Below the pieces are notes generated by a model. That model saw nothing but the letters and a program-made list of their open reading frames with translations. It made no database searches and was not told the DNA's origin. Positions 1-64,000 of a stretch of 64,000 bases of DNA are shown piece by piece (position 1 is the first letter of the stretch; the number at the start of each line of letters is the position of its first letter). Made by a program: the position numbers and the translations under genes. Origin of the DNA: Raillietiella orientalis (Eukaryota); NCBI GenBank assembly GCA_036172245.1, contig JAYWIR010000105.1, positions 1 through 64,000 on the forward strand, in the 5' to 3' direction.

Positions 1-108
1 AATCCCCGCTGTGGAGAGCGGACGTGCTTTTCCTGCGCTCCGCCTGCGTGGCAAAGCGAGTGTTTTTTTCCTCTTAACTGATTTGTGCGTGCACATCGTC
101 GGTGTCCG

Positions 109-1976
109 ATGGCAGCGTTGCCAGAGGACACCGCGATGGAAGTAGGCGTGATGGAGGCTTGTTCGTCCCCACAGCCTACTGGATCAGGGGCAAGCGCCCG
201 GAATCGTCCCCGGCGACGCCGAGGTCCTGGAGCGCCATGGTGGCCGCGCCTAGCGTGGAAGCCATGGCCGAGATGGAAGCCTACAAGAAAGCAGGGTATA
301 AACCCTCGCTAGTCTACAAGGTAGGCAACCTTTTCGATGGACGAACTGTACGCGCCTTTACGAAGGCGCTGCAGGACGCCAATATTTTTGAAAAAGATCT
401 CGACGGCCTCTGCGTCCTCAGCGGCGGGCACCGGGTCGAGGTGGTATGTAAGGATATCACCTTGGCCCGACGCCTGTTCACCGACCCGCTGATCGTTGAT
501 GGTCGCAAGATCTTGCCGATAACGATGGACCGCTCGGTGGTGGTCCATCTCACTGGGATCTCAACTCGCATGACGAGGTCAGCGGTTCGAGAACAGCTTC
601 AAAAGCACGGAGAAGTTCACGCGTTGTGGCCGAAGTCCACGATTTTCCAAGGCTACAATAGCCTTTTCGGAGGTCAAGCTGCGGCGCGTATCACGGTAAA
701 AGAGGGTGGTGCGCTTCCCCATAAGCTGGGGGTCTGCCAAGAAGCTGTGGACCTCTGGTACGTGGGTAAACGCCAATTTTGTGGCTACTGCGATGCAGTA
801 GGGCATCTACGAAAAAGGTGCCCGAACATTGTGTGCCACCTATGCGGCGAAAAGGGTCACGTTCGGCGCGTGTGCCCCAAGCGCCCCACCCCGGTGCCCC
901 CTGCCGCCAAAAAGGCGCAGGGAAAACGTGGAAAGCTGGCAGAAAGACCAGCTCGCGAAAATGGCCGTTCCCAACTGCCAGCCTCCCTTCCTCCCGTACA
1001 GACGTCGGAGGAAATAGCTACCGCGGGAATGGAGGAGGGTTGGCAGCTGGTGCAGGCCAGAAAAGAGAAAAAAAAGAAAGTGATGATAGAAGAAAATTCG
1101 GAGAAGAAAACTGCCGGCAACAAGAGAAAAGCCGCGCCGCTTTCAAAAAAAAAACTCCGCGAATGCTCGGTGGCTCTGGAACGCTTAGCCGTTCCTGCCG
1201 AGTCCGCCCGCGGCAATGTTCACGGAACAGCTGATGCGGACGCGATGAATACTCGCGTGGACGAGCCCAATCTACGTGTAGAGGGTGAGACGCGAGACTC
1301 GCGCGCCGACAGCCAGGACGCCGCGCTCGATAAAGTCGCGGAGGAGCCCGCGGCAACGTTCGCCGTCAACGATGACGCCGCGCTCGATAAGGTCGCGGAG
1401 CAGCTTGCGGCAACGGTCGCCGCTGGCGAAGACGCGGCCTTCGAGAAAGCAGCGGAGGAGCTCGCAGCAACGCTCGCCGAGCGCGAAACCCCGTCGCGCA
1501 AGGGCGTACGCAGGTCGGCTCCGACGAAGAAGGCCCCCGCAGGTGAGTGCGACCTGGGGGCCGGAAGCGGATCCTCCTCCTCGCAGGCACCCCCCAGGAA
1601 GTCGGGACCCAAGTCCCACAAACCCAGGAGGCGCCTCCCCTCCACCAGTGAGGAGGAGAAGACGGAAGCCGCCGCCAGCGTGGGAATCCCGGAGGGGGAA
1701 TACCCACGCCCGGAAGCCGTCGAGTCGGCCACCCCCATGGAGGAGGGTGAGCAGGGGGGTGAAGTCCTCCCTGCAGTCGCGAAACCTGAGCAGCCCGAAC
1801 CCATGGAGCAGGACGAACAGGGAGGCGCCTCTCCACCTGCGGGTGATCCGGCCGACCCGCCGGCACCGATGGAGGAGGAGGAAAAGGTGCCTTCAGTACC
1901 TGTCCCCCCTCCCCCTCCACCTAGCGTCCCGCCCCAGCAGGTGGCGGACGCCGCATCGCCGTTTTCCCAGGAGTGA
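109..1976 (+). CDS. A1 ORF1, gag-like nucleic-acid-binding protein with two CX2CX4HX4C knuckles; one frameshift near the N-terminus
   Basis: CGYCDAVGHLRKRC and CHLCGEKGHVRRVC. ATG at 109 aligns with the A2/A3/A4 starts (MAALPEDTAMEV); the frame changes near 200. Confidence 0.85.
1317..1487 (+). repeat. Three imperfect 57-nt (19-aa) tandem repeats in A1 ORF1
   Basis: DAALDKVAEEPAATFAVND / DAALDKVAEQLAATVAAGE / DAAFEKAAEELAATLAERE. Confidence 0.8.
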
Positions 1977-2438: not shown

Positions 2439-2516
2439 GAGTGCAAACGTGTTTTTCTTCGCTCTCGTCTCCGTGCTTTCATCCGCTTGATCTTGGTGTC
2501 GTACATTTTGACGACG

Positions 2517-4439
2517 ATGTCGACCCAAATTGAAGCTACTAAAGTTGGAGAAACAGCATCCGGATCTGCAATCGCGGAACCGACGGCCGCCTCCACTTCG
2601 TCTTTCTCGCCAATTAAGAGGAGTTTTGCTGACGTTGCTGCCCCCGCATCCGTCAAAGGGAAGCCAGTCGACGAGTCGGAGTTGCGGGCATACGTATCCG
2701 AAGGCTATAGACCTGCTCTCCGTTATAAGGTGAGTGGTATTCTTTCTGCGCGCGATGGGAATCAGTTCGACGATGAACTGATTCGTGTTGGCGTGCGGGA
2801 GGAGGACCTTCTCGCCATTATGATCGTAAAAGACATGGACTATTTCAAAGTGCGTTGCAAAGACGCTGCACTTGTGCAACGCTTGCTGCGCACCCCGTTA
2901 TCGATCCGTGGCCAGAAGGTCTTCCCGGCCGCCATGGACGACTCATTTGCAGCGGAGATTTTCGACATTGAGTAGGAAATCACCGATATTGATATTCGGA
3001 ACGCGTTAGCGAAATTCGCCAAAGTCCATGCGCTGTGGAGGGTGCGTAGCAACCTCAAGGACTTCCCGTCCATACACAGCGGAGTCGCTGGAGTCCGGCT
3101 TACAATGCCGGAACGCCGTCTGCTGTCCACCAAACTACAGGTGGAAGACACGGTCGTTCACCTATGGTTCATGGGCAAAGTAAGAACGTGCGAGCAATGC
3201 GGGAAGGAGGGGCATTGTTTGGATAAATGCCCCTCTGGAAAATGCCGTTATTGCAAACTATCCGGGCACCTATTGAAAAATTGCCCGGATCTTTTGCGAA
3301 AAAAGTCAGCCGCGGAGCTCCATCTGAGAAAACAAAGCGCGGATGAGAAGAAAAAATCTGCGAAAAACCTGGAGACCCCACGGCAGAAATTCCGAAACAA
3401 CGCGAGGCGGAATGTCGCCCCAAAGCAGCAGGAAACCTCGCACGCGAAGCCCTGCGCGCCACCTCTCGCGGCAGGGGAGCCGCAAAAGAAAGGGTGCGGG
3501 GAATCCGGGCCAATGATAAGTCCCCCTAGGCGCAATAGCTGTCCTTCGCAAGCACGCCCGGCTCTCTCGGAGTTCAAGCAACCGGGGAAGACGTCAATGG
3601 ACAACGGCGGTAAGGACACTTCCAGTACAGTCAGATCCATTCCTTCACCTCCTGCAGTGGCTGAGAATCCCAAATCGGGTAAGAAGGGTTGTGCCGTGTC
3701 GACTTCGAAAGTTGGCAAAAAAAAATCCGCGTCGCGATCCAACACCGCGAAAGCGGACAAAAATCTCACGCCGTCGCAGTCGGAGAGCAAGCTCTCGACT
3801 GGCGCGGATGCCATGCCAACGAAGGGATTAAAAGCCCTTCCGAAAGCAGCGTCCATGACGAGCGTGTCGGAGCCATCGAAAGTGCTCCCGTCCAAAGACG
3901 CGGATGGCTTCAAAGATGGCCATGGAGCACAATCTCCATTTACGGCGCCACGCGAAGTGAGGAACCGTAATGAAGTAAAGAAGACTTCAGCAAAGGTCCC
4001 TCGTGCAACTGCGCGTGAGCACGCTGAAAACGCGCGCGCCGGGAAAGCAGGCGTCACCAAAAAAGATGCTCTGGTGACGGAAAACGAAAACAGGACAGCT
4101 GTCAATCCAGCAGAACCTGTCACTGCTTCGCGGAAGGCCGAAATTCGATCGAAAATGCGCCCGTCGGACTCCGAAATGGATGCCGTTCGGATCACCGAGA
4201 CGAGGACAACTCGTTCGAAAGCGTGTGCGCGCCGATCAAAAGTAGGCAGCCAGGCAACGCTAGCCGCGAAGCCACGCGAAGTCTCCACGAAACCCGACGG
4301 GGTTAAGCCTGGAGTGGAGGCATTACATGCATGCAGCACGACAGAGGACGGTGACGACCGTCTCCTCCAGCCATTCGTGCTGCTCGCCGTCTGCTCGCCG
4401 GATAAAGCGAGCAAAAAGCCGCCACATTCCCAGCAGTAA
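2517..4439 (+). pseudogene. B1 ORF1 (two CCHC knuckles) with one in-frame stop
   Basis: CEQCGKEGHCLDKC and CRYCKLSGHLLKNC; TAG at 2973-75 where B2-B4 have TCG. Confidence 0.88.
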
Positions 4440-7400
4440 TGCGGGCAATCGCGTCTTTTCGTCGTCTGTCCGTAACGTGTTGGAACGTGAACGGACTGCA
4501 GAACGACGAGAAGAGGCGATTAGTAGCCAACGCCCTGCGCCCCTTCGACCTCGCGCTGCTGCAGGAGATTCACGTAATCTCCGACGAGCAGGCAGCCGAA
4601 ATCGAGGAGCGCGCAGGCGGAACGCTACATTGGCGGTGCGGCGGCGCACACACGTGCGGCGTCCCGTTCCTCGTAAGAGGAAAAATGGCGGAAGCGGTGC
4701 GTAGTGTTCGTTTCGATGACGACGGACGGATAGGCCAGCTTGTCATCAAGTGGTCCGAGTCCATCGATCTCGTCGTTACGAACGTCTACGCGCCGAGTGG
4801 CTCTCGCTACCTCGAAGAAAGAGTAGCTTTCTTTGGTGAGGTGCAGAGCCAGTGGCTCAACAACTCCGGCTTCCAAGTGGCGCACCTCGTTGCTGGGGAC
4901 TTCAACGTCCGCCTGCTCTCCGACGATTGGAGCCGCCCGAGGAAGCGCGCGCTGCCCATCGAGATGTGCGCGTCCTTGCACGCCGCCAACTTGATGGTCA
5001 GCGAACCTGGAATGGAAAGATCGCTCGATCACGTTTTCCTCGATGAAAACCTGCATTCGCGTGTTGGTAGGAGAGGAAGATTGTTGACTGAGCTTTCTGA
5101 CCACCACAGGTTGGAGTTTGAGATCCTTCCGCCAGGCAGGGGGCCTCCGTTGCAAAGCTGGAGGATGCAGGCGGATTGGCTTAGCCAACCGGAGGCTGCG
5201 GAGCATCTACGTGGATACCTCCGAGGCTTTGCCATTCAAGAACTTGCGGACTGGGACGATCTCAAAAGATCTGTCCGCGAGTTCTGTTGCCAATTCCCCT
5301 TGCACCGTCTTCCACGCGGTTTCGGAGAGGGCCTGGCCAACAGTAGAGACTTTCTGCAGGCCCGCACGTTTTCGAGACGCACGGATGTCGGGCGTCTCGC
5401 AGAGTATAAGGCGAGGGCCGAGCGCCAGGTGTGGCAGTCCGGAGCAGCATTCCTGTTGGACGACAAGGGCCAGGAATGCTCGGCCCCAGCCGAAGTACGC
5501 CGCATTGTGAGACGCTACTACTCCTCGCTCTACGCGGAATCTCCGACGGAGGATATTCTTTCTGAGATACTCCTATCTCAAAATGCTCGTGTTGTCGGCG
5601 AGGAGGAACGCGAACTTCTCGACGAGCCCTTCACGGCGGATGAAATTTCGTCCGCAATCGCTGGGCTGAAGAGACGAAAGGCGCCAGGCGAGGATGGGCT
5701 CCCTGCAGAGTTTTATCAGTGCTTTGCAGTGGAGATCATTCCCTTCAAGCTGAAACTCGCGATGCTGATGAGTGAATCCGGGAATGTCCCGAATTCCTTC
5801 CGCTCAGCGAAGGTGCGTCTCCTGCCGAAAGGCGGAGACTTGCGCCAACTTAACAGCTGGCGTCCGATCACCTTGGTGAACTCGGACGTCAAGCTGTTTT
5901 CCAAGCTGTGGGTCGCGCGGTTAGGAAGTATCGCGGAATCTGTGGTGAGCCCGGAACAAACCTACGCGGTTCCGGGACGATCCATGGAGGCGAACATCCT
6001 TTTCGCGCGTACATGGATGCAGCTGCAGGAAGTTGTGACGCAGCAAAGCCAGGCTGCTGCGAAAGTCACTGCCGTAGGCAAGAAGAACAGGCGCCGACGG
6101 CAGGAGGGAACGCCAGGTGCCTTGGCGGTCGCGGTCGATCTCCACAAGGCGTTCGACTGCGTAAACCAGAAGCTGCTTTTGGAGCTAATGGAACGCCTTG
6201 GGTTCCCGGGACAACTCCTGCTGTATTTGCGCGCGTGCTGGCGCCACGCGCTAACCTGCATCACTTTTAGCGGCTGCCGCGTGTATGGTATTCCCGTTCG
6301 TAGGGGCATCCGACAGGGCGACAGCTTAATCCCGTTGCTCTTCAGCATCTTCTTTGAGTTGGTGCTAAGAGCATACAGGCTGACGCTGTCTCACTTGCCA
6401 AGCTCCTGCCCGGGAACGCCTGCCGTGGCCGCCTACGCTGATGACCTGCTTCTTCTGCTCCCCATGTCCACCCCGGCGTCCAGTGTCGAGGATTTCTTCG
6501 ACCTGATTCGTCGGGGAGCGGGCGTGAGCGTGAACAGAGAGAAGAGCGTGGTCGTTCCTGTGGATACGTCGTGGGAGGGGCAGTCCGACTGGATCCGTCT
6601 GGGGATCCCCACGGGCGGGTACTTTAAGTACCTTGGCGTTCCGTTCGGCGCTTTCGGCGCAACCCAAGCGTGGGCGGACTGTCCTCAGAAAGCAGAGTTG
6701 GCCATCAGCCCGTTCTTTAACGGCAAGTTCACCTTGCAGGATCGGGCGACTATTTGGAACACCTTTGTGGCCCCCCTCCTCCGTCCCCTGTTTTTTGTTT
6801 TGGATCCCCCCTATGCGGCGAAACAGCGAACTAAGCGCCTGCTCAGGAACGCTCTCTGGGGTCCGGCGAGATCCAGAATCCGCCTTAAAGAGTTGTCAGC
6901 TCCGCGTCGGGATGCAGGTTTGGGTATCCTGACAATGGAGCGAATCGGACTTCAGGTGCAGTTCCGACTGCTGGCACTGTGTGCCCAGCTATGGACATCC
7001 TCCCTGTGTGTGCCAGCTCGCATTCTCCTGCGGAGATGCGCCGGCAGCTGAGGATTTCTCTCGCTTTTGCCGGGCACTCAATACAGGAAGCGGGGTTTCG
7101 GTTTTCCATTGCGGCAGTTGACCGCACTTCTGGAAGCACACTCTTGGATCTCCTGCCGCCCAATGAACTTCGAAGCTTGGCGGCAGGAGTCTGTTGAATC
7201 CTGGGCGGCGTTCGAAGGAATACGCCCTGAAGATCTTCGCCCCCTGCGCCAATTTTTTCCACGATCCTTGGAAGAAGTACTGCAGCACGAGGTGAAGTTT
7301 TCTACCCTGGCTGCCACGCCTCTTGCCGCAGCGCTGTCTGCCCTCAGAGCAAGAAACGACAGTTACCAACCGGCGAGGTGGGAGGTTTCCTGCACGATAG

Positions 7401-8033
7401 CGGGAAGAACCAAACTCCTTGGCACCTGGAAGACAAGTGAGTTGGCGGACGCCTCCACTCCTCGTTTAAACTGCAATGGAACTCCTCCGGTGGGCAGAAG
7501 AACTTGCTGTCACCCCCGAAGAACTTGTAGTCCCTCCACAGTGTATTGACGGTTCGCTGCTCTCCCTTGCTTGAAAACAAGCCATGGTGCTTTTCGTTCA
7601 CTGGTGTTTTCATTGCAACGAGCGTTGGCATCCTGACTCCTTGGGACTTGCGTCTGCGAACTGATTTCGTAGCGGATCGACGGAGTCGATTCTGCACCTA
7701 CTTCTGGACTGCGGTGTCCTACAAGGACTGTGGCGTAGGCTGGCAACAGCACTAAGGCATCCCGTGGACACCGCAAGAGACTTGCTGCGACGATTCTTCA
7801 CGCCGAGCGGGCTGTCACTAAGCTCACGAATTGCAACCATCGGTTGCATACGCGCGTTAGTTTCCGTCCGCCAGGCGTTGGTAATCAACGGACAGCACCA
7901 AGAGGTAATCAGCAAAGCATCCTTCTACATGGGAGCATCCGCTAGATGGCCTCATTTGACAGAGGAGACAAAGAGGAATCTCGCCGCAATACACCGCCGG
8001 TTTACACACGCTCAGCAGCGGCCAACCCGGTGA
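4439..8033 (+). pseudogene. B1 ORF2 APE-RT-CCHC, open for 870 aa then nonsense and frameshift
   Basis: WNVNG/LQE/GDFN/SDH, KAPGEDG, WRPITL, DLHKAFD, GIRQGD, AYADD, FKYLG. TGA at 7049-51 where B2 has GGA. Confidence 0.92.
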
Positions 8034-8319
8034 TCATTGCCCTACCCTCCATAAACTATTTTTGTATTTTCTTTTTACACCCGCGTCCTCATAGGCTCCG
8101 GAACATTTTAGGTGCTCATCGTTTAAATCCCCGTGGGTACGGAGCCTAACCAAAAACTCGTTACCCTTCCCTACAGTTTTTGATTTTTGTTTGTTTCCCC
8201 TCATTCCTCCCACGCTGCTAGCGGTTTGTTTACCAGGCCTGCGTGCCTGTAATTATTCTATGTTCTCTGTCGTTCTGTTGGATAAGGACATTGTTTCTGA
8301 CCAGTTCATTATTATTATT

Positions 8320-8348
8320 AATAAACGCCCGGCGTGACCGGGTGATAA
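8320..8348 (+). terminator. Representative 3'-terminal module: AATAAA + CCCGG hairpin + GTGATAA
   Basis: AATAAA 8320-25, CCCGG-CGTGA-CCGGG 8328-42. Homologues end at 8692, 17264, 22889, 31115, 37034, 38746, 46632, 52780 and 56836. Confidence 0.7.
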
Positions 8349-8357
8349 ATTTCAATC

Positions 8358-8691
8358 TCCGCCTGCTAACAGGTGAGCCGGAAACACAAGTGAACGCTAT
8401 GAAGGAGTTGTGCGCCGCCATGCGTGCGCGCAACTTGTTCGCGGGTGAGAGGGGAATGGTCCACAGCATCGACTACGTCTTCCTCGACGCTGACCTGTGT
8501 TCACGCGTCGGCAAACGGGGGAGGGTTGTGTCGACGTTGTCGGACCATTCCCGGCTAATTTTCGAGATGCGGCCTCGCGACAAAGGACCGCTATCCAGGG
8601 ATTGGCGTCTGCCGGGGGACTGGACGCGACTCTCAGGTGCGAAGGAACACCTTCGCGGATACCTGAGAGGCGTCACGCTCCGGAATCTCTA
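8358..8691 (+). pseudogene. A1 ORF2 fragment 2: APE C-half and linker start
   Basis: LRLLTGEPETQVN...SIDYVFLD...LSDHSRL; matches the uninterrupted A4 sequence at 52798-53120 on the minus strand. Confidence 0.88.
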
Positions 8692-8904
8692 TTGAAACCC
8701 GGGTGCGCCGGGACGTTTATTCTCACGAATCAACCTATACAATCTGTGACTAGACCAGTAGTCCTGCCACGCCCTGGGAAGATATAGCTTGCCGGGCTAC
8801 CGGTGCGCAGACCGGCGCGGTCGACCTCGGCAGCAGAGGGGAGGGGCAACGAAACAAAAAGAAAACAAAGAATAAACAAAAATCAGGGAGGGAGCGGGAA
8901 GGGA

Positions 8905-11606: not shown

Positions 11607-11706
11607 TCTCCTCGAGAGCGGACGTTTTTTTCCGGCGCTCCGCGAACGAGCAGCGGAAAGCGGTTTTTTTGGTTCAGTGTGTGCTTTTTCACATCGTTGG
11701 TGTCCG

Positions 11707-17049: not shown

Positions 17050-17275
17050 TCTTCTCCTCTCCCTCCAAACTCTTTTTTTTGTTTTCCTTATCCTTATTTT
17101 TCTTTTTGTTTTGATCCCTATCCCCCTCCACAGCCAAAGAGCGTCACGCCGGGATGCGTCCCGGCGTCCCGGCAGGTCCGGTGTTGTGTGGCCGCTAGTG
17201 GGGCCTCGTACCACGTGTATGCAGAGTTTTTCCAATGAACGCCTTGGGCGTACCCGGGTGACAACCCCAAATCCC

Positions 17276-19760: not shown

Positions 19761-19895
19761 CGCCCCCGGATCCTCTCCCGTGGTGGTATCAGGAATTGCT
19801 GCCTAATCCTCCACACACACCACGCAAAAGCACCAACGGAAATCGAACTCAGGAGCAACGAAAAGACACGTCCGCTCGACGCTCCGGAATCTCCA

Positions 19896-46631: not shown

Positions 46632-46855
46632 TTTACACCCGGGTGCGCCGGGGCGTTTATTTCTTTAATAAAAAATAAACAAGCAAGTGTAGGGCTAACG
46701 CCTCTACAGTGTTCAGAACATGTTCTTCTGAACTCACCGAGTGGGCAGCACGCAGCATCTTAAGGTCGACTCGGCAGCGGAGGGGGAAGGGACAAATAGA
46801 AAAAAGCAAAAAGAAAACACTATTTACAAAGGCAGGGAGGGGTTGGGGAAGGGAT

Positions 46856-52044: not shown

Positions 52045-52797
52045 CCCCCGACCACTGATGCACCGCACTACACCAATAAAGTCGAGCGAGTCAGGAGCGC
52101 GCAGAAAACACCTCTGACCGTCGGCGCGGCTGGTGTTGCATTGGGAGCTTCCTTGCAGCGCCCGCCGACACCACTGGACGCGGGTGGGTGTCAACCCTAA
52201 TTGTGTCAGGTGCGGGGAGAGGGAATACCTCCCCCACCTGTTAGTAAATTGTGTTGCCCTCCGTCCCATGTGGGAACGCTTTGCCGCAGCCCTGAAGATC
52301 CCCGGAGGCAACCCCAGAGACGCTTTGCGCCCCCTCTTCGTCCGTGACGCCCTGCCTTTAGCGGCCTCCCTTGAAGCCCTCTGCTGCCTACGCGGAATCG
52401 TCGTGGCATGGAGCAAAGCGACGGGAGGATCCAGCGACAGGGATGCCAACGTGTATGCCGCCCGTTTCCTCAGGATGGCGACAAGATGGCCCCATCTGGA
52501 ACCACACAAGCAGAAACAGCTTGCCGGCATCCTCCAGAGGATGACGGACCCTCCCAGCAGACTGTGATCCCTTCCCGCTCCCTCCCTGATTTTTGTTTAT
52601 TTTTTGTTTTCTTTTTGTTTCGTTCCCCCTCCCCTCTGCTGCCGAGGTCGACCGCGCCGGTCTGCGCACCAGTAGCCCGGCAAGCTATATCTTTCCAGGG
52701 CGTGGCTGGACTACTGGTCCAGTCACAGATTGTATAGGTTTATTCGTGAGAATAAACGTCCCGGCGCACCCGGGTTTCAATGGAGATTCCGGAGCGT

Positions 52798-53583
52798 GAC
52801 GCCTCTCAGGTATTCGCGAAGGTGTTCCTTCGCACCTGAGAGTCGCGTCCAGTCCCCCGGCAGACGCCAGTCCCTGGATGGCGGTCATTTGTCGCGAGGC
52901 CGCATCTCGAAAATTAATCGGGAATGGTCCGACAACGTTGACGCAACCCTCCCCCGTTTGCCGACCCGTGAACACAGGTCAGCTTGGAGGAAGTCGTGGT
53001 CGATGCTGCGGACCATTCCCCTCTCACCCGCGAAAAAGTTGCGCGCACGCATGGCGGCGCACAACTCGTTCATCGCGTTCACTTGTGTTTCCGGCTCACC
53101 TGTTAGCAGGCGGAGATTGAAATCTCCCGCTATCAGGTGAGCCTTCCGCACGCTCGTGTTCGCCAGCCAGACGCGGTTCAGGGATTCAAGCAGCCTGGTA
53201 CGGTTGCTGTATCCCTTTTGACCGGTTGGGGCGTACACATTCGTGACGATCAGATCGATCGAGTCGGACCAGCCGAGAGTCAGCTGACCGACCCGACCGT
53301 CGTCATCGAAGCGCACGCCCTTCACGGCAGCGTAGATGGCCGGCTTCACGAAGAACGCGACCCCGCAGCTGTTGCGGATGCCGCATTGCCAGTACAGCCG
53401 ACCCCCCGCGATCGTCTCGATCTCCTGGACGTCTGCCGCGGCGATCACGTGGATCTCCTGCAACAGGGCCAGGTCGAACTCCCGCAGGGTGTCGGCTGTA
53501 TCTCGCCTGTTCCCGTCGTAGCGCAGCCCGTTGACATTCCAACAGGCCGCGCGAATCCGACGGCGACTGGCGAGCCCAGGTGT
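52798..53583 (-). pseudogene. A4 ORF2 5' part: APE with an unoccupied GDFN site
   Basis: WNVNG, LQEIH, HLIAGDFNLRLL, LSDHSRL. Confidence 0.9.
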
Positions 53584-55334
53584 TAATCCTGGGAAGATGG
53601 CAGTGTGGCTTCCGCCACCTGCTAGGGCGGGACGCTAGGTGGAGGAGGGGGGTCAGGTGCTGAAGGCACCTGGTCCCCCTCCTCCATCGGTGCCGGCGCG
53701 TCGGCCGGATCACCCGCAGGTGGAGTCGCGCCTACCTGTTCGCCCTCCTCCATGAAGTCGGGCTGTTCAGTGTCGGCGCCTGCAGGGGGGACTTCACCCC
53801 CCTGTTCACCCTCCTCCATGGGGGTGGCCGCATCGACGGCTTCCGAGCGTGGGAATTCCTCCTCCGAATTTCCCACGCTGGCGACAGCTTCCGACTTCTC
53901 CTCCTCGCTGGTGGAGGGGAGGCGCCTCCTGGGCATCTGGGAATTGCGTCCCGACTTCCTGGGGGGTGCCTCCGAGGAGGAGGATGTACTTCCGGACCCC
54001 AGGTCTTACTCACCTGTGGGGGCCTTCCTCGCCGGAGCCGGCCTTCGCACGGCCTTGCGCGAGGGGTTCTCACGCTCGACCAGCGTGACCGCGAGCTCCT
54101 CCGCCGCCTGCGCGAACGCGGCGTCCGCGACTTCGACCGCCGCTTTGTCGCGCGGCTCACCCTCTGTGTAAACAGAGGGTTCGCCTTCGCGACCCTCGGG
54201 TGCAGTGGAAACGGCAAGGCGGGGATCGACGCTCCGGGTGGCAATCTCCGGAACGACTATTCGTTCCAGTGCCACCGTGCACTCGCGCAGAGTTTTCGAG
54301 CGCGGACCGGGTTTTTTCAGCTTACCGGCCGTCTTGCGTTCTTTGCTCTCCGCGGGTGGGAGTTTCCTTGGCTTTCTGGCCTCTACAAGCTGCCATCCCT
54401 CTTCGCCTTCCACCGTTTCAGAAGGTTTATCCTCCTGCTTACGCTCCGGATGTTGAGGTCTTGGCAGCTTGTGCTGGCCCTTTTTTACTTTAGGTCTAGA
54501 GACCTTTGAAGCACGTTTCCCCTGCGCTTTTTTTGCGGCAGGGGGAACCGGGGTGGGGCGTTTGGGGCACACGCGCCGATCGTGGCCCCGCTCTCCGCAC
54601 AAATGGCATTGTATATTGGGACACTCTTTACGTAGGTGTCCCACGGTATCACAATGCCTGCAATACAGGGGCTTCCCTACATACCACAGGTCGACGTTTT
54701 CTTGCGCCACCTGTAGTTTGTGGGGAAGCCAACATTTCTCCCTTACGGTGACCCGCGCTGCAGCCTGCCCACCAAAAAGGCTATCGAAGCCGTCGAAAAT
54801 GGACGGTTTCGGCCACAGTGCGTGCACCTCACCGTACTTCCGTAATTCCTTACCAACCGCTGACCGCGTCATGCGGCTGGTGATGCCAGTCATGTAAACC
54901 ACCACGGAGCGGTCCATTGATACTGGCAGCATCTTGCGGCCGTCTACGTTCAGCGGCGCATGGATTAGGCGGTGAGCCAAGGTGACATCTTTGCAGACCA
55001 CCTCGACCCGCTGCCCGCCGCTGAGGACGCAGAGGCCGTTCAGATCCTTCTCATTGACATTCGCGACCTTCAACGCTTTGCTGAAGGCGCGCGCTGTCCG
55101 GATGTCGAACAAGTTGCCTACCTGGTAGACAAGCGATGGCTTGTATCCGGAGGCCTTGTATGCGGCCATCTCCGCCATGGCTTCTGCGCTGGGCGGGGCC
55201 ATTATGGCGCTCCATGTCCTCGGCGTGGCCGGGGATGATTCCGGGGCGGCTGCCCCTCCTCCAGTAGGCTGTGGGGGCGAACTAGCCTTCCCCACTTCAA
55301 CCTCCATCGCGGTGTCCTCTGGCGTCGTGGCCAT
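53583..55334 (-). pseudogene. A4 ORF1, nonsense codons near 54006 and 53622
   Basis: CRHCDTVGHLRKEC and CHLCGERGHDRRVC. Confidence 0.87.
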
Positions 55335-55436
55335 TGGACACCGACAATGTACACAAAACACCACACACAAGAAAGCGCTTTCCTACTACCCTTTGAGGAG
55401 TGAAGGAAAAACACGTCCTCCAACTGGCCTGGGATT

Positions 55437-56727
55437 GGGCTGGCTGCGACGATGCAGCCGGCTCCTCCGCGGCACGCTCCAAGGCGGCGTCAACGATCAC
55501 GTTCTCGATGACAGACGCTTCCGCCGGTTCGCTCCCTACGCTGTTGACATTTTCAACAGTGGGTTGCTCGTCGGTAGCCGCGAATTCTACCTTGCGGCGT
55601 TCTGCTGGAACGCGTTTCACGACGACGCTGCATTCTTTTAAGTTCTCGCTAACCTGCTGTTTTTTATTTTGGTAGGCGAGCTTTTTTTCAATTCGTCGTT
55701 CTTTCTTCGACTTTCTCTTTTTCGCTGTGGCTTCCTGCCATTCCATCAACTGAGTGCTTTCGTCGATCATTCCAGCATTCGTTGCCGGGGTGTCGGCTGC
55801 GGCCTGGACCACGGATGTGGGTGTCACAGCTTGAACGGCAGCCTTCGCCGCCAGCCCTTTCTGTGGCAGCCGCGCGCGTTTTTTTAGGTTCCTCGCGGAA
55901 ACCACGCGCACAACGGATTGTGGACACACTTCCTTCCTGTGGCCCATTGTCCCGCATACCAGGCACTGTACGTTGGGGCACCTCCTTTTCAGGTGTCCCG
56001 ACGTGCTGCAGAAGCCACAGTATTTGGGCTTCCCCACGTACCAGAGGTCGACGCTTTCTGCGCTGACCACCAGTTTCTGGTGAAGGGTAGAGCCCTCCCG
56101 AACGGTTACACGGTCAGCCGTGAGGCCGCACTGAACTATGGTATAGTCCTCGAAAGGACTTGGCTTGGTCCATACTGCATGGACCGTGCCTTCTTTTCCC
56201 AATGCGGCGCGTAACTGTTCTTTTGGCATCCGCGTGGTAACTCCTAAATGATGGACCACCATACTGTGGTTCGCCGTAATGGGAAGGAGCCTGCGTGTCC
56301 CCATCACCAGAAGAGTTGTGAGCAGACGTTGGGGCAGATCTGCGTATTTGCAGATCACCTGTACGTACTGATTCCTGCTACGAATGGTCATAGCGCAGAG
56401 CTTCTTCTCTTTAACATCGAGATCGCGCATCCCCTTCGAAAAGGCGCGCGCACTCTCGAGAGAATACAAATTTCCTTCCTTGTAGAATAGTGCTGGGTTA
56501 TACCCCTCTTCTACATAGGCAGATAATTCCGCCGCGGCAGCAGCTGATGGTTCCGACACGACGGCGCTATACGCCCGCGCTGCAGCGGGGACCGGTTTTG
56601 TGATGGCGGACGCCCCCACCTCCTTCGCCACTAAAGGCGACGTTGCCGCCGCCACCTGGCACTCCAACTTTTCTAGAATGGACGTTGCCGCCGCCACCTG
56701 GCACGCACTGGTGGTCGTGTCAGGCAT
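55437..56727 (-). pseudogene. E ORF1 5' part, interrupted by A4
   Basis: CGFCSTSGHLKRRC and CLVCGTMGHRKEVC; related to C ORF1. Confidence 0.87.
56639..56704. repeat. 24-bp perfect direct repeat in the E ORF1 N-terminus
   Basis: GACGTTGCCGCCGCCACCTGGCAC at 56639-62 and 56681-704 (CQVAAATS twice). Confidence 0.85.
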
Positions 56728-56835
56728 TGCTGAATGATCGAACACCACCACACACGAAGCCTACACGTAGGAACGGTTCCCGGCACGAGGAGCACCAAGA
56801 AAACACGTCCGCTCTAACTGAGGTAAAGCGTTCGA

Positions 56836-59800
56836 TTCTCACCCGGATTTCTCCGGGTCTTTTTTTAAAAAAATAAACATTATAAAGTAATTATTAATGG
56901 CTGTGGCAATGCTCCAGCCAGAAGCTAAGAACCACGGAGCCTGCCAATTCACCGGTTTCTAGACCGGTGCGGTCCACCAAGGCAGCAGGGGAAAGGGGAA
57001 AAACAAAAAAACTAAACAAAAAGACACAAAGGGTGGGAGGGAACGGGAAGGGATTACTGATGCTGCTGGGGCCGCATCATCACCCTCAGGATGCTCACAA
57101 GCTCTTGTTTGTTATGAACATCAAGGTGGGGCCATCGAGACGCCCTCCTCAGGAATTGGGAGGCGCACTGGATGGCGTTCTCATCACTAGGTCCTCCCGT
57201 CGCCGTGCTCCAGACGGCGACAATCCCACGGAGGCAGCACAAGGCTGCTATCGAGGACGCTGGCCGCTGGGCGTCGGCAACGAAGAAGGCTTTTAGTGCG
57301 TCCCTGGGGTTGTCGCAAGGGATACCGATGGCCGCGGCAAAGCGGAACCAAAGGGGTTGAAGGGCAACACAATTTACTAGGAGTTGGGGAAGGGATTCCC
57401 GTTCCCCGCTCCTTACACAATTGGGATCCACCGCTCCCCAGGTCCAGTGGTGTCGACGGGCGTTGCAGGGGAGTCCCCAGTGCTGCAACAGGAATGCCCA
57501 CTCTTGCCAGTTTAGGGGGAGGATGGAAGTGTTCATAAGAATCGGGGGCCACTTCAGATGTTCAATCGGAACATCTAGCAGCGCTCCCCAGCGCAGAAGT
57601 CCATTAGAAGGCGTACTCGGGGTCGCAGCATCAGTTAGCTGGCCCGTCTTATACTCTCTCTGCTTCTTCTCCTTCCCGCAGATTTTTATTGTAACCTCCC
57701 ACTTCGCCGCAACATCGCTGTCCTGATGTACCACTAGGGAGTCCGGCGCAGCAGCGAGGGGGGTTCTTCCTGACCACGCTCTCTTCTTAGGATCCTCCAG
57801 GATCTCACGGAGCGTGCAACTTCTGTAACACCCAAACAGGAACCTTCGTTCCTGATGGGAGGGTTGCATGCCGAACTGTCCCCACGTGCGAACAGTTTCC
57901 TGCAACCAAACACTACCGTTCGCAGGGAGACAGGTGATCCATCCTTGATTTTTCCTTGCCAGCGCAACTACCCTACGTAGCTGAAGCCCACATCGATTGA
58001 TGCGGCTTCGATGGAGTGCAAGAAACGACGTAAGTCCCGTCTTGCCGGTGGCTTGCTGAAGGAGGAGACGTGCAGGGACGCACCAACAGGTGCACCACAA
58101 CTCCGGCACAAGTGCCAAAATCCGGAACTGCAGCTGCATCTCCAGCTGCTCCAATGTCAGGAGGCCGAGACCACCGTCCCGAAGCGGAGCGCACAAGTCC
58201 TTCAAGCGGACTCGGACCCTCCCGTTGCTCTAAAGAACGATACGGAGGAGGTCCTTCGTCCGCTTTTTGATCCTCTCTGTGGGGGTACAAACGAAAAGCA
58301 GCGAACGGAGGAGAGGAGCTGCGAACATGTTCCAAACCGCGGCCCGTTCAGGCAGGAAAAACCTGCCGCCTCGGAACGGGCTGATAGCCGTTTCTACTTT
58401 TTGAAGGCAGCCGGACCACGCTTCCGCAGGGGAGTAGTCCCCCAACGGCACATAAAGGTACTTGAAGTACCTCAACGTGGGGATCCCCAAACGGACCCAG
58501 TCCTGCTGCTCTGCCCACGCCGCACCAACTGGCATCACGGACGACTTCACCCTGTTCACCGTAAGCCCGGTTCCTCGATTCAGCAGGTCGAAGAACTTCT
58601 CCACCGCCGAAGCCGAGGTGGACATAGGGAGCAGTAGCAGGAGGTCGTACGCATATGCTGAAACCGCAAACGTTCCGGCGCATTCATGCGGCAGGTGCGC
58701 CAGAGTTTCCCTGTACGCTTTCAGTACCAACTCAAAGTAGGTACTGAAGAGCAAGGGGCTCAGGCTGTCTCCCTGCCGTATCCCACGTCGCACCGGCACG
58801 CCGTGAACAGTCTGCCCGCTGAAAGTAAGATTGATTAGCGAATAGCGCCAGCTGGAGCGCAGATAGGCCAATAATGAGGCCGGGAAGCGCAAGCGTTCCA
58901 AAAGCTCCAGCAGGAGATTCTGGTCGACGCTGTGGAATGCTTTACGCAAGTCGACAGCGACCGCAAGTGCTCGTTCCCCCATCCGACCATCCCTTGCATG
59001 ACTGACGGAATCACCGGAATACCCGGTGCGCATCAAGCCCCTTTCGTGTTGGAGCTCTAGCCAGGTGAAAGCGTGGAAAAGGTTCGCCTCCATGCTTCGC
59101 CCCGGAACAGCATACGTCTGTTCCGAGCTGATGAAGGCGTTTGCAACCCGTTCCAAACGCTCAGCCCAAACCTTAGCTATCAACTTGGCATCCGCATTCA
59201 CTATTGTGATGGGACGCCAGTTGTTCATGCTCCTCAGATCCCCTCCCTTAGGGAGAAGCCGAACCTTTGCCGCACGAAACGAGGCGGGAACGTCACCTGT
59301 CTCGCGTATCAACAAGGTGAGTTGATGTACCGGGGGAGTAAGCTCAGCCGCGAAAGTTTGATAAAACTCCGCGGACAGGCCGTCCTCCCCTGGAGCCTTT
59401 CGCCTCTTGAGCTTTCCGATGGCCGAGATGATCTCGCCCATCGTGAAAGACTCGTCGAGGGACTTTTTCTCTTCTTCCCCGATCGAAAGAGCGCCTTCCG
59501 GAAGCAGGAGTCGTGAGACGTTCCTCTCCGGAAGTGCCCTGGCATACAGGGAGGAGTAAAAACGCCGCAGCAGACCGCGGATCTGAGCGGGTGCCGAATG
59601 CTCCTGGCCCTGATCGTCCAGCAAGCTGGCCGATCCTGACTGCCAGGTTTGCCTCTCGGCTCTCGCTTTGTATTCCGCCAGCCTGCGGATGTCGGGGGTC
59701 CTGGTGTAACGGCGAGCCTGTAGATAGGCTCGTTCGTTACGTACCCCGTCCCCAAATCCCGCAGGTGAGCGGTGCCGAGGGAACTGGTCGCAGAACTCCA

Positions 59801-60488
59801 GGACCGACCTTTTGAAGAGGTCCCAATCCTGAAGTGTCTGCATCGTAAAGCTCCGTATAAACGTACGGAGATGTTACGTCGCGTCCGGGAGCTTCAGCCA
59901 GTCCCCTGGCAAACGCCACGCTGACGAGGGGGGGCCCCTGTCACGCGGATGGATTTCAATCACGATTGGTCCATGGTCGGACAACTCGCACGGCAACTTC
60001 TAGAGCCTGCCCACACGAGTGCACAGGTGGTCGTCAAGGAACACGTGATCGATGTTGTCCTCCATCCCTGGTACACTGGCCAACAAATTACAAGTGTGCA
60101 CCGCCGCGAACACTTCGTTGACCAGGTCACGCTCGTGATTCGGCACATCCGGTTTCAGACGAACGTTAAAATCGCTTGCAACCAGATGGGCATTCCGCAC
60201 GCCTGCCTCGGTCAACCAGTCGCGATGGAGGGCAAGGAAAAATTCTTTCCTGGCCCTCCTGTTCGTCAGGTCCGCTCCGCTCGGGGCGTAAACGTTCGTA
60301 ACGATCAGGTCGATCGAGTCGGCCAGCTGAGAGTCAGCTGGCCGACACGACCGTGATCGTCGAACCGAACTTCACGGGCGGCGGCCTCGATGGCGGGCTG
60401 AAGCAGGTAGGCGGAACCACAACTTCTCGATGTTCCACACCGGTACCACAGCCGCCCTCCGTAGATGCGTTCGATCTCTTGCGCTCGT
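56836..60488 (-). mobile_element. LINE copy F: ORF2 (APE to CCHC, 60488-57054, disrupted) and 3' UTR; 5' part displaced beyond G
   Basis: ASDFN, DLRKAFH, GIRQGD, AYAYD (mutated YADD); 3' hairpin ACCCGGA-GAAA-TCCGGGT. Confidence 0.9.
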
Positions 60489-60602
60489 ACAGTGCAGACG
60501 TGTTTCCGCGTCTTTCCGCGCCAACGATCGGGCAACTTTGTGCCTGCGTTTTTGCTCGCACTTGTGTGTTCCTGTGCAATCTGCCAAGTAGCATAGTGCA
60601 AC

Positions 60603-62507
60603 ATGGCCAGTACACAGGATAGTGTGGAGGAGCAAGCCACTGGATGCACTTCAGCTGCACTTGAAGTGGCCGCATCCTCCGTAATGGTTTCCTCGCCCCC
60701 GGTGAGGAGTTACGCCGTCGTTACCTCCCAAAGACCAGGACCCTGCGATGCGGAGTTCCAGGCATATGTGTCATCAGGATACATGCCTGCACTCCGTTAT
60801 AAGGTCAGTGGGCCACTTACCGGGAGAATCGGTCGTGAGCTCAATGATGAGCTCGTCCGGATAGGCGTTCGCGAGGAGGAACTCCTTGCCATAATGCCTG
60901 CTGGCAGGATGGAATATACGAAGATTCGGTGCAAGAACGCAGCACTTGTGCAGCGCCTTCTCCGTACGCCGTTGACCATCAATGGCAAGGAAGTCCTACC
61001 TAACGCGATGGACGACTCTTTTGTCGTTCAATTGTGCGACATCGAACCGGAAATCTCCGACCGCGATGTCGTAAGTGTGCTGGCGAAGTTCGCCACCGTG
61101 CACGCTCTGTGGAGGAGGCCAAATCCTTTAAAGGATTTCCCCTCTGTCCACATTGGACAAGCCTCCGCGAGGATCACCGTCGCGAACAGGCGTGTTGTGC
61201 CTGAGCAGCTGCAGGTGAACGGCACGGTCGTTCACCTGTGGTTCATAAACCAGACTCGCGCGTGCGAGCAGTGCGGCAAGGATGGGCACCGAATTAAAGA
61301 GTGCCCCTCTCCAAGATGCCGCTATTGCAAAGATTCCGGGCACGAAATCAAGAAGTGCCCGGTAATTGCAAGAAAAAGAGCCGCAGCGGAAATTCGTCGG
61401 GTTCAAGAGACCACTGCACGAAAAGCCGCAGCGGCAAATAAAAAACGTCGTCCGCAAAAACTCGAAAAAAACCACGAGCGATCCGCGGATAACAAGAAAG
61501 CATCCCCGCCCGCAACGCCCCGAAAGGGGAAAGTCACGGCGGGGAAGCCAATTAAAAAGGGGCGCGAGGGTTTGACGCGTGCCGTGCCTTCCCTCTCTGC
61601 CGAACTCGCAGGCACCTTTCCGAACCTTGAACCAGGAAATCTCCGTAACACCCTGGAGGGAAAGGTAGGAAAACAGGAAGATCGCAACAGTGCGAAGACT
61701 TCTTGCCCCGTTCCGTTGTCCCTTCCGAGTTCCGGACAGCCCCACGGCAGCGCAGGCCCCACTGCAAAGGCTACGAAAGCCGTAAAAAGCAGCGTCGCAA
61801 CGAGCAAAAGCACGCTGCATGCAGTCGCCCCATCGCCGACTCGGCAGGAGAGGAGCAATCTCCCGACTGTCAAGAAGGTGACTCCGTTGCCGCCTTTTAA
61901 AGGCGTAGCGAAAGCAACGCCCCCAGAGAACGCAGCGAAAATCCCGGAGGTTTCCGCACCTACTGTCGCGGAAGCTTCCGAAAATCGCGAAGGCGAATGG
62001 AAGGTTGTGGAGAGGAGGAAAGAAAAATCTCCAAAGAAAGCTCCGCAACCTCCATCCCTGAGCTCTTCCAAAGGAAAAAGCAGTCACGCGAATACGAAAA
62101 CACGCGCGGCTTGTGACTCTTCCAAGGAAAAAGCCAACGCCTTCAACGCGTGCAAGTCCGCTTCTGTGACCGCCGAGAAGACCACTCCGGTGCAATCGGA
62201 CGGATGCAAGCGCACGTCGATCGTGCGAGCATCAGACTTCGCAAAGGAGTCCGATAACGCAGCTGAACGACGCGTAACTCGCGCGGGAGCGAGCGCCCGC
62301 AGGGCTGAAGCCCTGAGGCGTGACACACTCGCCGCGGAACGGCGAGTGCTCACCCCGGAACCCACAGGTTCTGCACCCGGGGAGGAGCACCAGATTACGT
62401 GCAGCACAGTTGAGGCCGGTGGCGACCGCGCCCTCCAGCCCGTCGTGCTGCTTACTGCCCGCTCGCCGGGTGAGGCGAGCACCACGGCCTCGCTTTCACA
62501 GCCGTGA
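60603..62507 (+). CDS. G ORF1, intact 634 aa, two CCHC knuckles
   Basis: CEQCGKDGHRIKEC and CRYCKDSGHEIKKC; shares ALRYKVSG and QPVVLL with B ORF1; TGATG overlap with ORF2. Confidence 0.88.
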   Translation: MASTQDSVEEQATGCTSAALEVAASSVMVSSPPVRSYAVVTSQRPGPCDAEFQAYVSSGYMPALRYKVSGPLTGRIGRELNDELVRIGVREEELLAIMPAGRMEYTKIRCKNAALVQRLLRTPLTINGKEVLPNAMDDSFVVQLCDIEPEISDRDVVSVLAKFATVHALWRRPNPLKDFPSVHIGQASARITVANRRVVPEQLQVNGTVVHLWFINQTRACEQCGKDGHRIKECPSPRCRYCKDSGHEIKKCPVIARKRAAAEIRRVQETTARKAAAANKKRRPQKLEKNHERSADNKKASPPATPRKGKVTAGKPIKKGREGLTRAVPSLSAELAGTFPNLEPGNLRNTLEGKVGKQEDRNSAKTSCPVPLSLPSSGQPHGSAGPTAKATKAVKSSVATSKSTLHAVAPSPTRQERSNLPTVKKVTPLPPFKGVAKATPPENAAKIPEVSAPTVAEASENREGEWKVVERRKEKSPKKAPQPPSLSSSKGKSSHANTKTRAACDSSKEKANAFNACKSASVTAEKTTPVQSDGCKRTSIVRASDFAKESDNAAERRVTRAGASARRAEALRRDTLAAERRVLTPEPTGSAPGEEHQITCSTVEAGGDRALQPVVLLTARSPGEASTTASLSQP

Positions 62508-64000
62508 TGAGGGCAATCGCGTCTTCTCGTCGTGTTGCCGTAACGTCTTGGAACGTCAACGGGCTCCAACACGAGGAGAAGAGGCGACTAGTGGCTGACG
62601 CCCTGCGCGCCTTCGACTTGACGCACCTGCAGGAGATTCACAGCATCTCCGGAGAGCAGGCTGCCGAAATCGAACGGCGCGCGGGCGGAACGCTACTTTA
62701 TAGGTGCGGCGTTGCACGTACGTGCGGCGTCGCTTTCCTCGTCGAGGAACTTTGGCGGGAGCGGTGCGCAGCGTTCGTTTCGACACGGAAGGCCGAGTGG
62801 GACAGCTTGTACTCAAGTGGTCCGACTCGATCGACCTTGTCGTAACCCACGTGTACGCGCCGAGCGGTGCTGGACGATGGGCCGAAAGGATTGAGTTCTT
62901 CGGTACCCTTCAAGGCCAGTGGCTCACTCGATCTCACCCTACTGTGGCCCATCTCATTGCGGGGGACTTTAACGTCCACCTGCTTTCTGAGAATAGATCC
63001 CACAAAAGGGAAAAGTTGCTAGCGGAAGAGATGTGCGCGTCCGTGCACGCGTGCAACTTGTTAGCTAGCGACCCTGTTATGGCAGCAACGCCGGACCACG
63101 TATACCTTGATGAACACTTGCTCTGTCGAGTGGGTCGGAGAGGTCCCGTGCCGTCCGTGCTTTCAGACCACAACAGGCTCGAGTTCGAGTTGCTCCCGCC
63201 AGGCAAGGGGCCTCCAAACTGTTTTTGGAGGATGCGAGCAGACTGGCTAAGCCACCCGGAGGCGGCTGAGCATCTTCGCCAGTACCTCCTCTGCTTTGCC
63301 ATAAGTGAGCTCGAGGACTGGGACGATCTGAAAAGATCGGTCCGCGAGTTCTGCTGCCGGTTTCCCTTGCACCAGCTTCCGCGCGGCTTCGGAGAGGGCG
63401 TAGCCAACAGCAGAGATTTTCTGCAGGCCCGCTCCTTTTTGAGGCGCGCGGACGTTGGTCGATTATCCGAGTACAAGGCCAAGGCCGAGCGCCAGGTCTG
63501 GCAGTCAGGGGCGACAGTTCTGCTCGACGACCAGGACCGGGAATGCTCGGCTCCAGCCGACGTGCGACGGATAGTCAGGCGCTATTACTCTTTGTATGCA
63601 GAGGCACCGACGGAACGCAGCCTCTCCCGGCTGCTTCTGCCGATTGATGCACCTGTTGTAGGCGAGGAGGAACGCGCGCGTCTTGATGAGCCCTTCACGG
63701 CAGAGGAAATTTCCTCGGCCATCTCGGGGCTCAAGAGACGAAAAGCGCCAGGCGAAGATGGGCTCCCCGCGGACTTCTTTCAGTGTTTTGCGGCGGAGCT
63801 CATCCCTCTGGTGCTCCAGCTCTCGTCGCTGATGCGAGACTCGGGCGATGTCCCCGCCTCGTTTCGCTCAGCGAAGGTGCGTCTACTGCCGAAAGGCGGA
63901 GATTTGCGCCAACTGAACAACTGGCGTCCGATCACATTAGTGAATTCGGACGTCAAGTTGTTCTCGAAACTTGGGGTGGCGCGGATGGGTAGGATCGCGG
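62507..64000 (+). pseudogene. G ORF2, APE and start of RT, frameshift near 62745; incomplete in window
   Basis: WNVNG, LQEIH, GDFN, SDH, KAPGEDG, WRPITL. Confidence 0.88.

Follow-up and report, generated by a model that had tools for sequence, protein, structure and literature searches.

A 64,000-nucleotide island of Raillietiella orientalis composed of long interspersed nuclear elements nested in one another, probably at lineage-specific coding sites

How does a stretch of genomic DNA come to consist of retrotransposons alone, most of them lying inside another? The question is raised by the first 64,000 nucleotides (forward strand) of contig JAYWIR010000105.1 from Raillietiella orientalis (assembly GCA_036172245.1), hereafter the window, in which copies of long interspersed nuclear elements (LINEs) of several lineages follow and interrupt one another from end to end. 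We consider it probable, while well short of certain, that this LINE-only island was built by successive target-primed reverse transcription of site-specific sister lineages that nest in each other. A self-BLAST of the window, a tblastn map made with the open reading frames (ORFs) of one intact-looking copy and a scan for shared termini tile positions 14-64000 with 14 LINE copies, named here A1, A2, A3, A5, B1-B4, C1, C2, X, E, F and G. An earlier reading made from the letters of the sequence, the original prediction, had called A5 A4 and X D; its claim of 14 copies without non-LINE DNA held up, since only the flank at 1-13 and two short spacers of 13 nucleotides (nt; 22890-22902) and 21 nt (56815-56835) are left over. 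GC content is 53-63% across the whole window, and neither tRNAs (ARAGORN) nor Rfam matches at gathering score were found in it.

The copies are arranged in two arms. In the left arm A1 (plus strand) holds B1 and C1 (minus), C1 in turn holds A2 (plus), and after the 13-mer there follows A3 (plus) with B2, B3 and B4. In the right arm, which reads on the minus strand, F is interrupted by G (plus), the 21-nt spacer follows, E holds A5, A5 holds C2 (plus) and C2 holds X (minus), so that the series E, A5, C2, X, with four levels, is the deepest nesting.

The insertion of B into A, which had been predicted to lie at the codons of the GDFN motif in sense orientation with a target-site duplication (TSD) of 9 bp, was borne out in all these respects, and the TSD ATTTCAATC is found at all five B junctions. 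The 5' part of A1 (14-2438, plus), which comprises the 5' end GAGAGCGGACG, ORF1 with a CCHC knuckle and the apurinic-like endonuclease (APE) domain up to the GDFN codons, closes with the left TSD copy at 2430-2438; full-length B1 (5910 bp; 2439-8348, plus) follows, and the right copy of ATTTCAATC stands at 8349-8357. A3 (22903-25208, plus) is likewise present from its 5' end to the GDFN codons, its remainder being lost behind a tandem B array at 25209-38333 (plus) made of B2 (25209-31115), B3 (31125-37034) and B4 (37044-38333, cut in ORF1), with ATTTCAATC at 25200-25208, 31116-31124 and 37035-37043. This 9-mer occurs seven times in the window against 0.37 expected: five occurrences flank B, one is the empty site of A5, and one lies in F on the other strand. 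At the GDFN codons the exact 9-mer is confined to the A1/A3/A5 sublineage, where two of three such sites are filled; the homologous codons in C, X, B, G and A2 carry 1-3 mostly synonymous differences (the near-matches being ATTTCAAC in C and GACTTTAATC in A2) and are all unoccupied.

Could such recurrence also arise if an element had inserted once and the composite had then been copied as DNA? According to this alternative, LINEs are attracted to the region as such, for example to centromeric or heterochromatic chromatin, without nucleotide specificity, and the repeated sites are composites spread by segmental or inverted duplication, unequal crossing-over or gene conversion. The layout of the window invites such a reading, for A1 with C1 in the left arm has its mirror image in A5 with C2 in the right arm, and A3 is 91% identical to the 5' part of A5; moreover, published work on Zepp (PMC8226300) describes its clusters as insertion targeting existing copies, with no defined nucleotide site. 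The divergence of hosts and inserts, however, speaks against copying in the case of B. The A1 and A3 hosts share 84.2% identity over 1 kb while the whole of B1 and B2 share 96.1%; in the 300 bp beside the B 5' junction the hosts agree at 246 of 306 positions (80.4%) and the B ends at 283 of 300 (94.3%; Fisher p=1.8e-7), the step being equally sharp at 150 bp and 600 bp, and no tract of high identity was seen anywhere between A1 and A3. Since identity is 80-84% between the hosts, as far as the base that adjoins the TSD, and 94-96% between the B copies, B in A1 and B in A3 are not one copied composite. No disabling mutation is common to B1, B2 and B3, which carry in ORF2 one frameshift and three stops, two frameshifts, and four stops, respectively; as these mutations are all private, the three copies descend from an intact source. 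The possibility that shared sites go back to one ancestral insertion duplicated as DNA, which had been named in advance as the finding that would tell against a guild of mutually targeting lineages, is thereby ruled out for B by the divergence gap; for C the result is mixed, as described below. On these comparisons, sequence-specific insertion of B into A and the independence of the two B insertions are well supported.

The second recurrent case is C in the linker of A. The host, the site and the antisense orientation are as predicted; the TSD, expected to be 17 bp, is ACGCTCCGGAATCTC, 15-16 bp in both hosts. In the left arm the middle piece of A1, from the B site to the C site (8358-8689, plus), carries the left C-TSD copy at 8675-8689, and C1 follows on the minus strand in two parts, the 3' part (8690-11606; ORF2 from about amino acid (aa) 305 to the 3' hairpin) and the 5' part (17265-19878; 5' end, ORF1 and ORF2 aa 1 to about 307), after which the 3' part of A1 (19879-22889, plus; linker, reverse transcriptase (RT), C-terminal domain and 3' hairpin) begins with the right TSD copy at 19879-19893. 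In the right arm the 3' part of A5 (38746-41764, minus) bears a C-TSD copy at 41750-41764, the 5' part of C2 (41765-46629, plus) and its 3' end (52120-52782, plus) enclose X, and the 5' part of A5 (52783-55423, minus) holds the other TSD copy at 52783-52797, together with the exact, empty B site at 53115-53123. C therefore sits in A1 and A5 at the identical nucleotide, in the same orientation and with a 15-bp TSD, and for random insertion the odds that two copies share nucleotide and strand in a 5.7-kb host are roughly 1 in 11,000 per pair.

With respect to age, the A1 and A5 hosts are 87-89% identical overall and C1 and C2 93.7-95%. Within 300 bp of the C 5' end, identity is 82.3% between the hosts and 93.0% between the C ends (p=7e-5); immediately next to that end, host identity falls to about 75-82%, that of C remaining at 93%. 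In the true frame no stop or frameshift is common to C1 and C2, each of which has six private stops and two private frameshifts; a TAA stop that had seemed to be shared was rejected, as it had come from translation in the wrong frame over the interval that two private frameshifts of C2 enclose.

The remaining nestings involve other partners. Full-length A2 (5658 bp including 7 extra 5' nt; 11607-17264, plus) lies antisense in the GFGEG codons of C1 between two copies of the 11-bp TSD CCCCAAATCCC (11596-11606 and 17265-17275), just as predicted, and C2 keeps the empty counterpart at 44365-44375. Reciprocal nesting of A and C, which the original prediction had proposed, stands in so far as C1 lies in A1 and A2 lies in C1; A into C is, however, one event, and it was made by the A2 sublineage, which does not host C and whose identity to the C-hosting A copies is only about 77-78%. 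At the two sites used by B and C, A2 itself differs from A1, A3 and A5, by two synonymous bases at the B target (13918-13926; GACTTTAATC) and by several bases at the C target (14240-14260), and it carries neither insert. In A2 the conserved 5' motif is also separated from the upstream target copy by seven extra nucleotides, TCTCCTC (11607-11613), and in A1 it is preceded by CGCTGTG (7-13); these may be untemplated additions or reflect a variable true 5' end.

A5 lies in sense orientation in ORF1 of E, at the predicted site, with a TSD of about 11-13 bp (10 bp had been expected) whose copies differ at 3-5 positions. The 5' part of E (55424-56814, minus; 5' end GAGCGGACG and ORF1) contains the upstream copy at 55424-55436, and the distal fragment of E (38334-38745, minus; from the end of ORF1 to about aa 21 of ORF2), which is truncated at 38334 by a breakpoint other than an insertion junction, contains the other at 38733-38745. 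The sequence of this site is found on both sides of A5 and also between A1 and A3, where the 13-nt spacer CCTCCCAGGCCAG (22890-22902, plus) equals the E-ORF1 target, and it aligns with the homologous stretch of C ORF1. The hosts of the two E sites do not lend themselves to comparison, as the E copy that should flank A1/A3 is not part of the window. A3 and A5 have the same 11 nt immediately before their 5' ends (TCCCAGGCCAG; 22890-22902 and 55424-55436), three of which are changed in the downstream target copy of A5; the upstream copy may have been carried along with the element in a read-in transcript, and co-transcripts possibly have a role in forming exact 5' junctions. A1 may possibly be a chimera with a C-site 5' flank, but its six visible flank bases fit the E site equally well. 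Target-specific insertion is, from the positions and duplications described, probable for both C and A5-type elements.

Full-length X (5490 bp; 46630-52119, minus) lies antisense in the C-terminal region of ORF2 of C2, at the site predicted, with a TSD of 6-10 bp and an altered 5' side in place of the expected ~15 bp; its left copy is at 46620-46629. Finally, G, a B-like copy (60488-64000, plus; 5' end, ORF1 and ORF2 to about aa 510) that runs off the window, is inserted antisense in the APE domain of the C-like F (56836-60487, minus; ORF2 from about aa 60 to the 3' hairpin), near aa 58-61, which agrees with the prediction, with the 5' junction only in view.

Three filled and empty pairs are present within the window, C2 having an empty A2 site, C1 an empty X site (9342-9351) and A5 an empty B site. 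When inserts are removed the host frame is continuous: aa 4 to 561 of C1, which span the A2 site, are read in a single frame, and the frame of C2 is likewise kept through the X site. The length of the TSD is constant within a lineage and different between lineages. Recurrence had been claimed for the B, C and A3/A4 sites, and all three do recur, B in A1 and A3 and again in the tandem B2-B3-B4, C in A1 and A5, and the E site at A5 and at the A1/A3 spacer. The claim that every resolvable junction lies inside an ORF of a sister lineage was too broad; it is true for the six types of insertion described above, and fails for the A1/A3, B/B and F/E junctions, which are head-to-tail with a target-site-like spacer between copies, and for 38333/38334, which is a rearrangement. 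The 21-nt spacer TCGAACGCTTTACCTCAGTTA (56815-56835, minus), which runs from the 3' end of F to the 5' end of E, has no second match in the window within 3 mismatches, and a tRNA-like origin was rejected on that ground and on the ARAGORN result; it may be a target duplication of the E/F lineage in a host outside view.

A mechanism that would account for this anatomy can be outlined as follows. The endonuclease of each lineage would nick another lineage at a short sequence within conserved coding DNA, the nick would prime reverse transcription at the target, and a second nick at a lineage-typical stagger would give rise to the TSD, of 9 bp for B, 11 bp for A2, about 11-13 bp for A5-type elements and 15-16 bp for C. 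Re-use of the duplicated target would lead to head-to-tail arrays, and each new copy would inactivate its host copy and at the same time provide the other lineages with new targets. What the window itself demonstrates is the anatomy, the TSDs, the empty sites and the separate origin of the two B insertions; that endonuclease specificity is responsible, that reciprocity is general and that the island grows by self-propagation we infer from the arrangement of the copies.

Several observations weigh against the scheme, and most of them concern C. At the 3'-end junction of C there is no step in identity (94.3% vs 96.3%, p=0.33), and the step at the 5' junction fades at 600 bp (90.2% vs 93.0%, p=0.08). 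A1 and A5 form a mosaic of tracts with 0-3 and with 17-24 differences per 100 bp (identity 80-100%), so that recombination or gene conversion must have acted among A copies; the tracts beside C are 94-98% alike, like C1 and C2 themselves, and a tract of conversion could end just where an insert begins. A stop is also common to A1 and A5, a W codon changed to TGA in the C-terminal domain of ORF2 (near 21810 and 39810), where A2 reads TGG. This common stop is weak evidence, because parallel hits at one codon occur: C2 (45895-45897) and F (58230-58232), which belong to different lineages, have a stop at one shared codon where C1 reads W. A single ancestral C insertion may accordingly have spread as DNA, via gene conversion. 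In addition, the insertions of A2 and of X into C, and that of G into F, are each represented by one event; the A2 site is filled in one of three identical copies and empty in C2 and F (59750-59760); the evidence comes from one window, with each recurrent site resting on two hosts; and the junction 38333/38334, where B4, ending in an A-run of its ORF1, is joined in opposite orientation to E at about aa 21 of ORF2 without any element terminus or TSD, is a case of DNA-level rearrangement in the island. It may be a deletion or inversion breakpoint, or possibly a mis-join.

Selection on the coding regions adds a further point of this kind. The ratio of nonsynonymous to synonymous substitution rates (dN/dS) is 0.22-0.31 between lineages and 0.44-0.60 within lineages, the latter being at the lower edge of the neutral range and not separating the models, as neutral simulation of two ORFs gave medians of 0.67-0.97 and 5th percentiles of 0.51-0.72, with 3-4% of substitutions creating stops. 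Stop counts were set against difference totals estimated as ORF2 length times pairwise divergence (for A1/A5, 3.6 kb at ~11%). The private stops of C1/C2 (12 in ~230 estimated ORF2 differences) and of B1/B3 (7 in ~170) are in line with neutral decay of inserted copies. For A1/A5, 7 private stops stand against ~13 expected neutrally in ~400 estimated differences, about half, a hint that the divergence of these hosts took place in part while their lineages were active and that the hosts are thus separate insertions.

Taken together, we judge the two insertions of C into A to be probably, by no means certainly, independent, and the support that these alignments lend to site-specific insertion of C is moderate. 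For the island as a whole, regional attraction with copying of composites appears unlikely: it draws on the mirrored arms, the A1/A5 mosaic, the common stop and the breakpoint, and has to contend with the host and insert divergence at B, with the absence of any disabling mutation common to C1/C2 or to B1/B2/B3, and with a TSD length that is fixed per lineage.

A narrower alternative accepts the specificity of B, and perhaps of A5-type elements, and treats the other nestings as ordinary insertions that persist where nothing was harmed, with no reciprocal guild. The single events for A2, X and G, the A2 sites left empty in C2 and F and the X site left empty in C1, and the insecure independence of the C recurrence all suit it, as does a contig from a public sequencing run (X1, see below), in which an antisense 3' end reading ...CCCGGGTGATAA is joined to the A APE domain at 24930, a position unused by insertions in the window. 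All insertions are nevertheless full length with clean TSDs and lie within conserved coding motifs (GDFN, GFGEG), C entered the identical nucleotide twice, the sequence of the A5-type site recurs at the A1/A3 spacer, and empty sites are expected for a site-specific element whose targets are not saturated; we hold this alternative to be quite improbable. That some junctions are artefacts of mis-joining in a region made entirely of repeats of 90-97% identity is very improbable, even though 38333/38334 lacks an insertion signature and none of the listed X1 contigs spans a junction by 31 bases on both sides, for mis-joins do not yield matching TSDs or frames that close exactly once the insert is removed, and X1 contigs cover 30 of 30 bins of 8001-28000, 15 of the 466 being at least 99% alike.

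Site-specific nesting of sister lineages can be extended to a broader and more tentative proposal, towards which we lean slightly less than against it. At least three clades would parasitise one another reciprocally, with endonucleases that target conserved and partly catalytic motifs of their rivals (GDFN; GFGEG before the RT), so as to disable rival copies while sparing the host genome, to seed new targets and jointly to extend a LINE-only domain, perhaps a centromere. Escape from targeting could then explain why the B site differs by synonymous bases and why the C site is altered in A2.

What kind of elements are these? Of 29 stop-to-stop ORFs of at least 250 aa scanned with Pfam, 12 were matched, all by LINE domains, and 17 were without match. 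Exo_endo_phos (PF03372), the apurinic-like endonuclease N-terminal in ORF2, was above cut-off in 4 of the 29 (E 7e-15 to 4e-11), and the GDFN motif is found in B, A, C, X and G. RVT_1 (PF00078), the RT downstream of the endonuclease, matched eight ORFs, seven above cut-off and one below. zf-CCHC (PF00098) was detected in ORF1 of A1, A2 and A5 with 21.3-22.3 bits against a cut-off of 20.8, was sub-threshold in ORF1 of G, X and E and gave no hit in ORF1 of B. At the C-terminus of ORF2, zf-RVT (PF13966) reached 16.4 and 17.5 bits in two of three C-terminal ORFs scanned, below the cut-off of 27.5; a C-x2-C-x7-H-x4-C pattern is seen in the ORF2 translations of C1 and C2. Stops or frameshifts occur in every copy, no ORF2 is intact, and 5' truncation was found in 0 of the 13 copies that have their 5' region in view.

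The termini are also held in common. The 5' end of all copies is a variant of GAGnGCGGACGTGTTTT, and a search of these conserved 5' ends for a ribozyme gave no Rfam match at gathering score, with only sub-threshold miRNA-like and sRNA-like hairpins at E values up to 1. The 3' ends read AATAAACGCCCCGGCG..ACCCGGGTG(n)AA, that is, a hairpin plus GGGTG(n)AA, directly adjoined by the TSD and without poly(A). Zepp, an L1-type LINE discussed below, has a poly(A) tail. The terminal hairpin, with a 5-bp stem, is kept in 10 of 10 3' ends, C-to-U changes preserving G-U pairs, and a second hairpin upstream of it shows compensatory changes in six of seven pairs; the RT would thus appear to recognise its own 3' structure, as in a stringent-type LINE. 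In a tree of the RT region, built without A3 and E, which have no such region, three clades are resolved, namely A (A1 with A5, and A2 outside), B with G, and C with F and X, at between-lineage nucleotide identities of 63-84%; A3 groups with A5 by its 5' part, and ORF1 of E resembles that of C (66-74%). On this basis the lineages are sister clades of one APE+RT LINE family, which is best read as a stringent, L1/Tx1-like one.

Some smaller features of the A copies may be recorded here. The first 1.3 kb of A1 (5' untranslated region and ORF1) is only 59-79% identical to A3/A5 and A2, compared with 80-98% identity to A5 over the remainder of the copy, so that the ORF1 module of A1 is a different one. 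The distal ORF1 of A1 contains a 57-bp tandem repeat at 1300-1487 (3.3 copies, 77% matches). A hairpin is conserved just upstream of ORF2 in A copies (24632-24691, 53630-53695 and 13347-13406), with sub-threshold matches to miRNA families at 27-35 bits, far below gathering scores.

Does the family occur beyond this window? A protein search with ORF2 of B returned 38 hits, the best being P0001, a JGI metagenome protein from a 2.9-kb contig, which is 62% identical to B, 73% to ORF2 of X and 67-69% to F and C2, with all others at or below 30%; the family hence exists outside the source genome. The nearest named proteins, fish and fungal entries, are 20-28% identical to ORF2 of B, and a protein atlas gave generic APE+RT clusters only. 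A metagenome scan with an alignment of five lineages and P0001 recovered seven loci at 22-44% identity on contigs of 1.5-5.6 kb, and no nested relatives were present among these seven. Among three public sequencing runs listed, B was found in one (X1, with 0.77 of the B words), and the other two (X2 and X3) gave low-complexity matches only. A total of 466 X1 contigs, short and about 85-99% identical, were placed on 8001-28000; besides the 15 at or above 99%, there are 78 at 95-99%, 171 at 90-95% and 202 below 90%, a spread from which the families are seen to be multicopy and diverged. Another X1 contig is an A copy with an empty B site.

If nesting of this kind proves true genome-wide, it would provide a natural panel of related APE endonucleases with different known targets, useful for understanding how LINE endonucleases read DNA and for programmable insertion. 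It would likewise offer a concrete case of competition and mutual dependence between transposon lineages, and a mechanism by which a repeat-only domain, for instance a transposon-built centromere, could grow without damage to genes.

How does this arrangement compare with systems already described? The closest in outward form are Zepp of Coccomyxa subellipsoidea C-169 and ZeppL of Chlamydomonas, L1-type LINEs that build localised nested clusters by insertion into existing copies, Zepp having a GC content of 61%, richer than its genome (PMC3446292, PMC8226300). The window similarly is a localised cluster of copies nested in existing copies, with 53-63% GC. According to the same source, however, Zepp and ZeppL are represented by one or very few families per species, in arrays composed mostly of 3' ends owing to frequent 5' truncation (PMC8226300), unlike the window with its at least six lineages, no truncation among 13 5' ends and nucleotide-exact, lineage-specific sites.

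Exact targeting is known from LINEs of the Tx1 clade, described from animals, whose APE-type members use one defined sequence in a multicopy target that is sometimes a transposon; Tx1 is found in the piggyBac-type Tx1D, Keno in U2 genes, and Kibi and Koshi in microsatellites (PMC4494074, PMC4640811). The targets named there are thus RNA genes, microsatellites and a DNA transposon, whereas those in the window are coding sequences of sister LINEs, apparently used reciprocally. R1 and R2 in ribosomal DNA (rDNA) resemble the window copies in having exact sites in conserved multicopy sequence and full-length copies, and co-transcription with the rDNA target is thought to sharpen their integration (PMC4494074). 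That A3 and A5 are preceded by the same 11 nt would be in keeping with the carry-over of a target copy, as has been proposed there for rDNA elements. The target of R1 and R2 is, however, a host gene and not a retrotransposon, and the window copies gave no 5' ribozyme match.

Head-to-tail arrangement also has precedents. Tandem dimers of transposable elements arising from double insertion at one site are reported from Drosophila populations and linked to the origin of satellites (McGurk and Barbash, 10.1101/158386); B2-B3-B4 and A1-A3 resemble them in being head-to-tail with the target duplication between copies, and differ in belonging to a nested, multi-lineage island. In Drosophila, too, HeT-A, TART and TAHRE are several specialised LINE lineages that share one chromosomal niche in head-to-tail arrays (PMC5537684); these attach to chromosome ends, whereas the lineages of the window insert at internal coding sites of one another. 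A full-text literature search, of incomplete coverage and hence not proof of absence, returned no description of LINE lineages that use specific coding sites in each other for insertion. What is known, then, are target-specific LINEs in multicopy host genes or repeats on the one hand and Zepp-type self-clusters on the other; what would be new is that both are joined here, with the coding sequence of a sister LINE as the target, reached with nucleotide precision and apparently in both directions.

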